From the IMG/VR virus record IMGVR_UViG_3300021138_000002, positions 32,001-96,000 of that record: a DNA stretch of 64,000 nucleotides; one strand, 5' to 3'. The position numbers and the translations under genes are program-made. This stretch comes from a virus. Under the pieces are notes generated by a model. That model was not told where the DNA came from, searched no databases, and saw only the letters and a program-made list of their open reading frames with translations. This document shows positions 32,720 through 34,415 of the stretch, one piece after another (within the stretch, counting starts at the first letter, position 1; every line of letters starts with the position of its first letter).

Positions 32720-33146
32720 CTTAGACAGGCAACTAACCGACCGTGTTTGATCGAGGCAGCTCGATCCCCGTTGAGGGCTGGTGTGATACCCAGCCCGGAT
32801 AGAATGGACCAAGGTTCACTCGGGTGTCAAAGGCAAATGCTAACTCAAGGCAGCAAAGGATTTGGGCTCTGTGAAAAAGATACAACCCATGCTCGTAGGA
32901 CTTGGATCGATAATCGGGTCACTAGGGTTCCGTTGATATGTGAAGCTAGAGTAGGGGGTACCGGTCAACCGCCTCCGTGTGTGCAAACACAATCTCTTTA
33001 GGATCGATGACAGCTCAACTCAGATAATGTGTGGAGAATCATATTCACCGTGTGTACGGTGAATTGTGACCGCGTAATCTAGATAATGCAGAAGAGAAAC
33101 AATCGTTTCTGAGCTTTAGCGAAAGAAACAGATCTCTAAGAGATCT
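32720..33146 (+). ncRNA. Candidate large structured non-coding RNA (or ssDNA structural element)
   Basis: About 430 nt gap with no credible ORF in a gene-dense genome. It contains many hairpins, e.g. GATCGAG/CTCGATC 32749-32766, GGGCTGG/CCAGCCC 32775-32796, TGTGT-GCAA-ACACA 32978-32991 and ATTCACCGT/ACGGTGAAT 33043-33064. Strand is inferred. Confidence 0.6.
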
Positions 33147-33481
33147 CAAAACTGATCAGGATAATCTCTCCAAAGAGCATGTTGTATGTCTCCAGCAACA
33201 AACTGATTGAAACTGCGATGTTTGTCTTCCAGTTCGCCTTTGAGTGGAGCAACACGACGGAATGCCTCATCGATCTGTGCCATGTTCTCAAACTCCATGA
33301 TGATAAACCATTCGGGCATGTCGGCTATGCTGCGGAATCCCATTTTGCATCTGGTAATCCTGTAAGATATCATTTTACCTTCATCAACCAGGTGTTGTAA
33401 AAAACTTTTCATGTTGTTGACAAAATCAAGGTCGCTGATGTCGCCTTCCTTGTTTGCCCATATTGTGTATAAGTCTGACAT
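33146..33481 (-). CDS. DUF6614-like small alpha/beta (dimeric barrel-like) protein
   Basis: YTIW..DLDFV..FLQHL..EGK..SYRITR.KMGF..PEWFIIMEF.NMAQIDEAF pattern, recalled from the DUF6614 family. Confidence 0.6.
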   Translation of the reverse strand: MSDLYTIWANKEGDISDLDFVNNMKSFLQHLVDEGKMISYRITRCKMGFRSIADMPEWFIIMEFENMAQIDEAFRRVAPLKGELEDKHRSFNQFVAGDIQHALWRDYPDQF

Positions 33482-33915
33482 TATTGTAGTGGTCCTAGTA
33501 GTTCAAAGCCGTCAAGGCCCTGTTTGTACAAGTGTGCTTGATCCAGATAGAGATATTGGAATCCTCGATCTCGATAGATGGCACACTCGGTTTTTAAACT
33601 TTCTATGCCCAATCGCAACCGGGGATTGTGATAATTCCAGGCAAATTGAGCACACAAAGCATTGTGACTGTCGTAGCGTTTGATCATGCTCCAGGCTACC
33701 AGTCGTCCTTGGTCTCGATAGCCGATTAGATCTGTGTCTGGATCACGGTATTGGCTATCAAATATGGGCATCACACTAGCAAAGTGTTTGTAGATGCAAT
33801 AGGTTCTATAGATGTCGTTTAACAGGTCAATATCAGGATTGGTGATGTAGTACCAGTCCACCGTGGGCCGATAGGAGACCTTTTCAAGATTGATTCTGGC
33901 ATATTGATAGGTCAT
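33481..33915 (-). CDS. Aminoacyl-tRNA-protein transferase-like GNAT (ATE1/Bpt C-terminal domain-like)
   Basis: YRDQGRLVAWS..FAWNY.NPRLRLGIESLKTEC...RGFQYLYL....YKQ...GFELL follows the ATE_C pattern (G.LVA..Y.P....LG....EI....G..Y.YLG....YK..F...E.L). Confidence 0.65.
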   Translation of the reverse strand: MTYQYARINLEKVSYRPTVDWYYITNPDIDLLNDIYRTYCIYKHFASVMPIFDSQYRDPDTDLIGYRDQGRLVAWSMIKRYDSHNALCAQFAWNYHNPRLRLGIESLKTECAIYRDRGFQYLYLDQAHLYKQGLDGFELLGPLQ

Positions 33916-34415
33916 GGTCTGGGATCCTGTCGGTGTTGGAACAGTTCTTTGAGATAGGGTTCAGGCCAGGTGTCATAAAATCCTCGCTGACCCAGTGTTG
34001 CGGCCTTTTGATCAAGGTCTGTAAGACGCTGTATCAAGATCAAGGCATAAGTTCCTTGATTCATAGCGACACTGTTTACTATTTCGGGCAGACCCGGGTG
34101 ATCCACCAGGGCTATCAAATCGTTGGGCAATAGATATTCCTCACAGGCAGTTTTCACAGCCAGTTCAAAATTGAATCCTGAGTACCGGTCTGGATCGTAG
34201 GCCAAGATTACTACATCGCGATTGCCCAATCCGGTGCGACCAATTTCCATCAGGTCAAACAAGATGTTGTCGCCCGTGCGTACTTCGTAGGCTTGTTCCA
34301 GCCTGGCACGGCGTGCATACGGGCACGGTGCCCAGTTGTTGAGTGCTGGATTGGGCACTTCCAAGAAAGTTTCAATCCATCTATCGATGTCGGATTTTAT
34401 CTGTTCAAGATTCAT
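33912..34415 (-). CDS. DUF1415-like protein
   Basis: WIETFL...LNNWAPCPYARRA (compare LNLCPFA), plus DHP and NQG.YALILIQR. Confidence 0.55.
   Translation of the reverse strand: MNLEQIKSDIDRWIETFLEVPNPALNNWAPCPYARRARLEQAYEVRTGDNILFDLMEIGRTGLGNRDVVILAYDPDRYSGFNFELAVKTACEEYLLPNDLIALVDHPGLPEIVNSVAMNQGTYALILIQRLTDLDQKAATLGQRGFYDTWPEPYLKELFQHRQDPRP

Follow-up and report, generated by a model that had tools for sequence, protein, structure and literature searches.

A cassette of giant T4-like phages with a putative stand-alone ATE/Bpt-type GNAT domain: a candidate aminoacyl-tRNA-dependent modification module

Here we describe a three-gene cassette in the IMG/VR virus record IMGVR_UViG_3300021138_000002, of which a stretch of 64,000 nucleotides (nt) was analysed (positions 32,001–96,000; hereafter the window, whose positions are used as coordinates throughout). 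The central gene of the cassette, B, encodes a small protein whose assignment as a truncated ATE/Bpt-type GNAT enzyme without the N-terminal domain is supported by profile comparisons. Its upstream neighbour, A, most likely encodes a small thiolate-haem protein, as judged from sequence motifs and a predicted structure, and the downstream gene, C, a member of the DUF6614 family. Comparison with other viral loci, in which the three genes co-occur, including in rearranged orders, supports the conclusion that they constitute one genetic unit. The explanation that we favour, at a probability of roughly 0.5, is that B would be the core of an aminoacyl-tRNA-dependent modification module centred on arginine or guanidine groups. 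The members of the cassette are as follows.

33912..34415, minus strand: gene A, 167 amino acids (aa), DUF1415/DUF6875 (cytochrome P422)/YqcI-YcgG-like alpha/beta sandwich, putative Cys-ligated haem protein (AlphaFold2 (AF2) model, VIA-align, weak PF21780 matches in relatives)
33481..33915, minus strand: gene B, 144 aa, candidate stand-alone GNAT domain homologous to the C-terminal (aminoacyl-tRNA-binding) domain of ATE1/Bpt (profile chaining, AF2 fold, conserved residues)
33146..33481, minus strand: gene C, 111 aa, DUF6614 family (Pfam PF20319)

Gene B encodes a putative stand-alone ATE/Bpt-type domain

In a 90%-identity protein collection, close relatives of B make up 2,544 clusters, and a B profile run against 1.8 billion representatives recovered 148 clusters, which include a form of ~145 aa and a form of 225–270 aa, the latter with an extra, Cys-free N-terminal segment. 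The Pfam model ATE_C (PF04377) was matched weakly by all 25 of the close family members (best E 2e-4), and its gathering cut-off of 25 bits was passed by eight of the ten long relatives tested (225–268 aa; 25.5–49 bits), with the other two at ~22 bits. The short and long forms were matched by hhalign at 99.85% (E 1.6e-30), residues 5–140 of B corresponding to long-form positions 61–211, and a profile of the long form searched against all PDB sequences was significant only for ATE1 entries (E 8e-10 to 1.4e-9; ScATE1 residues 233–307), with no acetyltransferase among the significant matches. Pfam gave no match in B to ATE_N (PF04376), which accompanies ATE_C in ATE1 and Bpt, and B begins at the strand where ATE_N ends; NCBIfam and PADLOC searches on the cassette returned nothing to identify B. 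An earlier reading of this DNA made from its letters alone (hereafter the sequence-only reading) had described B as a 144-aa, ATE_C-like GNAT without ATE_N, and the chain of profiles to ATE1 leads to the same assignment.

The residues of B were mapped onto klAte1 by reading the short-B/long-B and long-B/ATE1 alignments together against a mutagenesis study (PMC9351520). The klAte1 residues W260, S273, E277, Y303 and K304, all shown to be important by mutagenesis (PMC9351520), have W93, S106, E110, Y130 and K131 as their equivalents in B, which are invariant within the close B family and predominant among 178 diverse B sequences. In this diverse set, the Trp and Tyr are near-universal apart from gaps, the Glu equivalent to E110 is present in 86 of 104 ungapped short forms and 64 of 69 long forms, and the Lys equivalent to K131 occurs in 91 of 102 ungapped short forms and in all 68 ungapped long forms. 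In klAte1, the Arg moiety requires the acidic E277, for which Bpt has Gln (PMC9351520); at this position, which reads the Arg side chain, B is acidic, as is ATE1. At two other positions the B family is like Bpt, with Cys, Ala or Ser in place of ATE1 S255 and Leu in place of Y289.

The homologous GNAT catalytic domain with its residue equivalents is thus what B shares with ATE1 and Bpt. Unlike them, B has neither ATE_N, nor the Cys/zinc cluster, nor the pocket for acidic N-termini, which in klAte1 are read by the ATE_N residues R80, Y25 and Y87 (PMC9351520), and it is shorter, with 144 aa compared to ~240 aa in Bpt and ~500 aa in ATE1. It also differs from both in being found in viral contigs only and in having haem-protein-like, DUF6614 and amidinotransferase genes as its partners. 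Most of the tRNA contacts of ATE1 are made by the GNAT domain rather than by ATE_N (PMC10115844).

The AF2 model of B, with a predicted local distance difference test score (pLDDT) of 84.6, is a complete single GNAT domain. Structure searches with this model retrieved VipF (Z 14.5), FemX (13.8), MprF (13.1) and Sbb17 (12.2), together with many single-domain acetyltransferases at Z 11–12. The fold alone would suit either acetyl-CoA or aminoacyl-tRNA as the cosubstrate, and it is the sequence profiles that separate the two, favouring ATE1. Every structural match that spans residues 1–144 of B lies in the second domain of a tandem-GNAT protein, suggesting that B would represent the aminoacyl-tRNA-side half of such an enzyme. 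By inspection, the Q/R-x-x-G-x-G/A pyrophosphate loop is absent from the beta4–alpha3 loop of B, which instead reads PRLRLGIES, a segment that aligns to and resembles SLGKLS of ATE1. FemX/FemAB, the aminoacyl-phosphatidylglycerol synthase MprF and Sba18/Sbb17, in which the C-terminal GNAT domain has the same fold as B, provide precedents for the use of aminoacyl-tRNA on non-protein acceptors; they differ from B in being tandem-GNAT or larger proteins and show no sequence-level match to it. Outside translation, transferases that depend on aminoacyl-tRNA are rare, and in the literature we found none described from phages.

Gene A encodes a putative thiolate-haem protein

The neighbours of A in a protein-language-model atlas belong to DUF1415 and DUF6875 clusters. 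The DUF6875 model PF21780 is weakly matched by 17 of 24 A relatives (best E 7e-4), and a homologue from Bdellovibrionia scores 18.9 bits against DUF6875, for a cut-off of 24.5. When the AF2 model of A (pLDDT 94.3) was searched by VIA-align, AglA came first (Z 7.7), with four more AglA entries among the matches; the five are found at Z 7.6–7.9 with a root mean square deviation of 3.5–3.7, their alignments cover 141–149 of the 167 residues of A, and the next unrelated chain is at Z 4.2–4.5. The fold match of the model to the four-stranded sandwich of AglA is suggestive, at a middling Z of ~7.8. Foldseek yielded nothing significant for A, and a homologue search with a broad profile of A listed only close relatives and no annotated bridge. 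PDB matches of the A profile (CFA/I pilin) look like chance and were set aside.

The CPY and DHP motifs pointed out in the sequence-only reading are real (C31-P32-Y33 and D105-H106-P107), and an alignment of 22 divergent A sequences, distant relatives included, shows no variation at C31, P32, A34, D105, H106 and Y147. In the AF2 model, the Cys-Pro pair (C31-P32) is located at the N-terminus of helix 34–39. The axial Cys ligand is Cys44 in AglA and Cys58 in Mc170. AglA, the prototype YqcI/YcgG enzyme, is a four-stranded sandwich that holds haem via Cys44 and hydroxylates the guanidine of arginine (PMC12866846), and DUF6875 has been renamed cytochrome P422 for a group of Cys-ligated haem enzymes with the motif RxGxVCP that hydroxylate free tryptophan (bioRxiv 10.64898/2025.12.11.692455). 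The invariant Cys-Pro of A recalls the latter motif. A resembles the AglA/YqcI-YcgG, P422 and DUF1415 proteins in its predicted fold, over ~145 of 167 residues, and in its invariant Cys-Pro, which is similar to the thiolate ligand motif; it differs from them in length (167 aa compared to 180–300 aa), and the P422 substrate-binding motifs were not identified in A. The sequence-only reading had proposed that neighbouring proteins might supply the missing half of B. A is not an ATE_N homologue, being DUF1415/DUF6875/YqcI-YcgG-like with an invariant Cys-Pro, so that it would not supply this half by homology.

Gene C belongs to the DUF6614 family

The third gene, which the sequence-only reading had called DUF6614-like, indeed matches Pfam DUF6614 (PF20319) with an E-value of 4.6e-22 and 78.7 bits, for a cut-off of 25, residues 3–110 corresponding to positions 2–107 of the 116-position profile, and its neighbours in the atlas are DUF6614 throughout. 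The alignment contains a set of invariant residues (R41, T43, R44, K46, G48, F49, S51, E57, H88, F91, N92, H101, R105, D106, P108 and D109), of which the many polar ones look like an active or ligand site. No relative of C with a solved structure was found. The equation of DUF6614 with the anti-Druantia protein Druad1 was ruled out: Druad1 has 44 aa and no BLAST homologues, and the label is only predicted.

The three genes form one unit across viral loci

Using a DNA pattern for the B motif QFAWDYxNP, we fetched 120 viral loci much more diverse than the close relatives of the window, each with a B-like gene. Among the short-B loci flanked on either side by 2 kb or more, A lies within 2.5 kb of B in 32 of 39 and C in 19 of 39. 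A and B are direct neighbours in at least 10 different gene orders; with clustering at 60% identity, this holds for 13 of 19 B clusters. With AMT denoting an amidinotransferase gene and f2 a further family described below, the orders seen are A>B>C>; A>B>; B>A<; B>f2>A>; A>B>AMT>; A>B>C>AMT>; A>B>AMT>C>; B>A<AMT<C<; A<AMT<C<B>; AMT<B>C>A>; and longB>A>. Conservation of the gene neighbourhood had been proposed as a check in the sequence-only reading, and the trio does recur elsewhere, also in rearranged orders.

In the 80 close viral loci, the order of a baseplate hub gene, a gp51-like gene, A, B and C is kept wherever the contig reaches. Identity among these loci is 69–88% for B compared to 39–72% for the hub gene, and C is also better conserved than the hub gene. 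This conserved order reflects shared ancestry and is not independent evidence for the linkage.

The B family appears to be phage-restricted and absent from cultured phages. Searches by tblastn with three different B proteins found no B in 50,697 phage records, and among 185,579 species genomes none matched the DNA pattern for QFAWDYxNP. The sole ‘genome’ copy of B resides, in the order A>B>AMT>, on a 6-kb contig of a metagenome-assembled genome, which is probably viral. The A family, by contrast with B, has cultured members: it corresponds to ‘T4-like GC 824’ of cultured cyanomyoviruses, represented by Syn1_090 (L208, Syn1 63289–63828) and S-PM2p080 (L209, S-PM2 26205–26669), and A-like genes are also found in HMO-2011-type podoviruses and in one Bdellovibrionia chromosome. 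A 111-aa gene upstream of the HMO-2011 A-like gene was considered as a counterpart of C and ruled out, since it is not DUF6614.

Some side observations concern the surroundings of the three genes. Insertions of ~1.1–1.2 kb split A from B (L027, L029) or B from C (L025, L037–L041, L080), possibly as a mobile element. Two unidentified families, f2 (~220 aa) and f13 (~237 aa), recur beside B in other lineages: f2 followed by long B in L084, L101, L106, L130 and L146, the long form being nearly always behind f2; B, f2 and A in that order in L097, L099 and L117; and f13 followed by B in L083, L139 and L164. ATP-grasp-like motifs in f13 are an impression by eye only.

An amidinotransferase recurs in related cassettes

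An AMT family of ~400 aa is found directly within the cassette in ~33 of the 120 diverse loci, in at least seven of the gene orders, and these include close relatives of the B of this window. The AMT profile matches L-arginine:glycine amidinotransferase (AGAT), SxtG, HsvA and StrB1 (E 3e-28 to 4e-24), and the His and the Cys of the GGxHC motif are invariant. In the source phage, the homologue of this gene is located outside the cassette.

The region around the AMT homologue of the source record (G000:C1:4000-15000; L203) encodes a DegT/DnrJ aminotransferase, the AMT homologue, a NodU/CmcH-type carbamoyltransferase, a GDSL-like protein and a radical SAM enzyme, an island that looks like one for sugar or small-molecule tailoring, as far as its gene content indicates. 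Cyanophage S-SCSM2R has a comparable island gene set, and an amidinotransferase was reported in its virion proteome (PMC12801897).

Genomic setting of the cassette

The source record, an IMG/VR viral contig, has 145,096 bases and an estimated completeness of 42%. Its complete or near-complete relatives are 320–347 kb in size, with terminal repeats in two, and the source is accordingly a giant T4-like phage. The cassette belongs to a run of five co-oriented minus-strand genes, namely the hub gene, a gp51-like open reading frame (ORF) of 93 aa, A, B and C, for which the features besides the trio are as follows.

34632..35471, minus strand: baseplate hub gene (gp26-like), 279 aa, first in the run (Pfam T4_baseplate PF12322, E 2.9e-15; PHROG 150 ‘baseplate hub’)
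34417..34698, minus strand: gp51-like ORF, 93 aa (ORF call; kept upstream of A in related loci)
33130..33146, minus strand: terminator-like hairpin with a T-rich tail, directly past the C stop (consensus scan, pattern match only)

The stop codon of the gp51-like ORF (TAA, 34419–34417) and the start codon of A (ATG, at 34415) are separated by a single base; the stop of A and the start of B share ATGA (33915–33912), and the stop of B and the start of C share TAATG (33483–33479). The layout of the three-gene cassette, with both overlaps and the start 1 nt past the gp51-like stop, is exactly as the sequence-only reading had it. A consensus scan showed no sigma-70-like box standing out inside the five-gene run, and a pattern scan found no TATAAATA late-promoter box near the cassette. 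Scans against Pfam, PHROG and further families gave no match for the 93-aa gp51-like ORF, which overlaps the hub ORF by 67 nt in a different frame (34632–34698). A search for tRNA genes found none, either within the window or across the whole 145-kb record.

On the other side, a GIY-YIG-like ORF of 142 aa (TIGR01453, weak, E 1.6e-4) converges on the cassette (region 32290–33145). It is kept in most related loci, typically at 68–91% identity and at ~34% in three loci, and is separated from C by ~430 nt devoid of any ORF, in which no Rfam family was detected, an S15 leader match at E 0.53 being attributable to chance.

Discussion

From the homologies, conserved residues, gene coupling and co-occurrence observed here, we infer a scheme in which the tRNA dependence, the Arg donor, haem binding, any joint action of the proteins and the identity of the acceptor are all conditional. 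B would bind the 3' end of an aminoacyl-tRNA, with a basic donor such as Arg-tRNA suggested by the acidic residue at the position of ATE1 Glu277, and would move the aminoacyl group onto an acceptor amine. Given that B is devoid of the ATE_N acceptor-reading domain, the acceptor would have to be delivered via a partner protein or via a B homodimer mimicking the tandem-GNAT layout. A would be the constant partner of B, probably holding a Cys-ligated haem, and C (DUF6614) a frequent third component. Characterised members of the A-related families hydroxylate free arginine or guanidines, or tryptophan. The module would most probably tailor a small molecule or a macromolecular group, with arginine or guanidino chemistry at its centre, and would be expressed together with the late baseplate-hub genes. 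The arginine part of this explanation rests on three independent hints, namely an acidic pocket residue in B as in ATE1, the similarity of the predicted fold of A to that of a guanidine hydroxylase, and the AMT partner. Of the two functions that the sequence-only reading had put forward, N-degron tagging and a tRNA-dependent modification pathway, the latter is the better fit.

A number of observations weigh against such a module. The B protein of the window reaches only 17.3 bits against ATE_C (E 0.0078), which is below the gathering cut-off, and the B-family profile alone found no PDB relative. In the fold search, the acetyl-CoA GNAT VipF ranks level with the aminoacyl-tRNA enzymes FemX and MprF. 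The basic helix by which klAte1 docks the acceptor stem carries K112, K115, K119, R120 and K123; its counterpart in B, helix 29–42, has only R37, followed by K43 and H44, and is weakly basic, as read without superposition on an ATE1–tRNA complex. A itself has no Pfam match of its own, and the DUF1415 and DUF6875 models gave no direct match to A in the phage record; the Z of its AglA match is middling, and C31 may only putatively be placed as the counterpart of the AglA haem ligand Cys44. The AMT homologue of the source phage lies 56 kb off the cassette, outside the window (G000:C1:8836-9855), and the 320–347 kb relatives (G001–G005; the records behind L031, L048, L055, L059 and L076) carry two to four scattered AMT paralogues each, none beside the trio. 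Finally, A was found in none of the seven long-form B loci with full flanks, and A-like genes occur without B both in cyanomyoviruses, always just upstream of gp25-gp6, and in the Bdellovibrionia chromosome, which indicates that A does not need B.

The homology of B to ATE1 and Bpt, with the residues of the cosubstrate side kept, would also suit the N-degron tagging proposed in the sequence-only reading, whereby B, with A or C recognising the acceptor, adds Arg or Leu to N-terminal Asp or Glu of host or cleaved phage proteins and thereby destines them for ClpS/ClpAP-type degradation; late co-expression with morphogenesis genes would fit an action on processed structural proteins. We consider this distinctly improbable: ATE_N, the bearer of the residues that read acidic N-termini, is absent, A has a haem-enzyme-like predicted fold and is not its homologue, the examined neighbourhoods show no recurring protease or adaptor genes, and the amidinotransferase partner would have no role, its presence in related cassettes pointing instead to guanidino or small-molecule-type chemistry. 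We found no evidence that favours tagging. If the ATE likeness reflected shared ancestry only, B could be an ordinary acyl-CoA-dependent GNAT acylating a small molecule or a protein, as its size, typical of single-domain GNATs, and the acetyl-CoA enzyme at the top of its structural matches (VipF, with many single-domain acetyltransferases behind it) would suggest. This, too, is decidedly unlikely in our estimate, because the sequence profiles lead to ATE1 and to no acetyltransferase, the canonical pyrophosphate loop is missing and replaced by an ATE1-like one, and the full-length structural matches are all to second domains of tandem GNATs.

The constant placement of A-family genes beside baseplate genes makes for a genuine alternative, namely that A, perhaps with B and C, modifies or chaperones a hub or baseplate component, or that the proteins are assembly factors. 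The trio continues the hub/gp51-like transcript here, the order B-f2-A-gp25-gp6 is seen in another lineage, the cyanomyovirus A-like gene (T4-like GC 824) always precedes gp25-gp6, and an amidinotransferase is part of the S-SCSM2R virion proteome (PMC12801897). A role in virion or baseplate morphogenesis nevertheless seems unlikely in view of the enzyme-like invariant residues in all three proteins, the A-like genes of podoviruses (HMO-2011) and of a bacterial chromosome, and the many cassette copies without a recognised baseplate gene nearby, although most of the neighbour families of those copies are unannotated. That A, B and C are mere neighbours with unrelated functions in a variable island might be argued from the absence of C from half of the diverse loci and of A from about one-fifth, as well as from the 1.1–1.2 kb insertions between the genes in some relatives; yet A and B have stayed adjacent in 13 of 19 B clusters, through inversions, permutations and the arrival of a fourth enzyme, and the start and stop codons overlap, which makes a chance association very unlikely indeed.

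Within the favoured aminoacyl-tRNA-dependent module, a new biosynthetic route can be sketched, in which AMT would make a guanidino compound, A would N-hydroxylate it, B would acylate it with Arg-tRNA, and the DUF6614 protein would act as a further catalyst. We regard this specific succession of steps as tentative and, on balance, doubtful. Its product may be an N-hydroxyguanidine/arginyl-type metabolite or a macromolecular modification, formed late in infection.

The B family, with hundreds of matches in viral contigs, is abundant and represents a large unexplored group of enzymes. Should B function as one GNAT domain on its own, it would be the minimal catalytic unit of the ATE/Bpt enzymes, and A, provided that it binds haem, would be the smallest among the non-P450 thiolate-haem oxygenases, a newly recognised group. 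The T4-like GC 824 of cyanomyoviruses, an uncharacterised gene in a cultured system, could serve for a study of haem binding in the A family. With its link to arginine, the set of partners suggests that giant phages of fresh and marine waters encode a new metabolite or modification. Should the biosynthetic route prove true, it would be the first case of a phage using aminoacyl-tRNA for something other than translation, and B would be the first ATE enzyme with a single domain.

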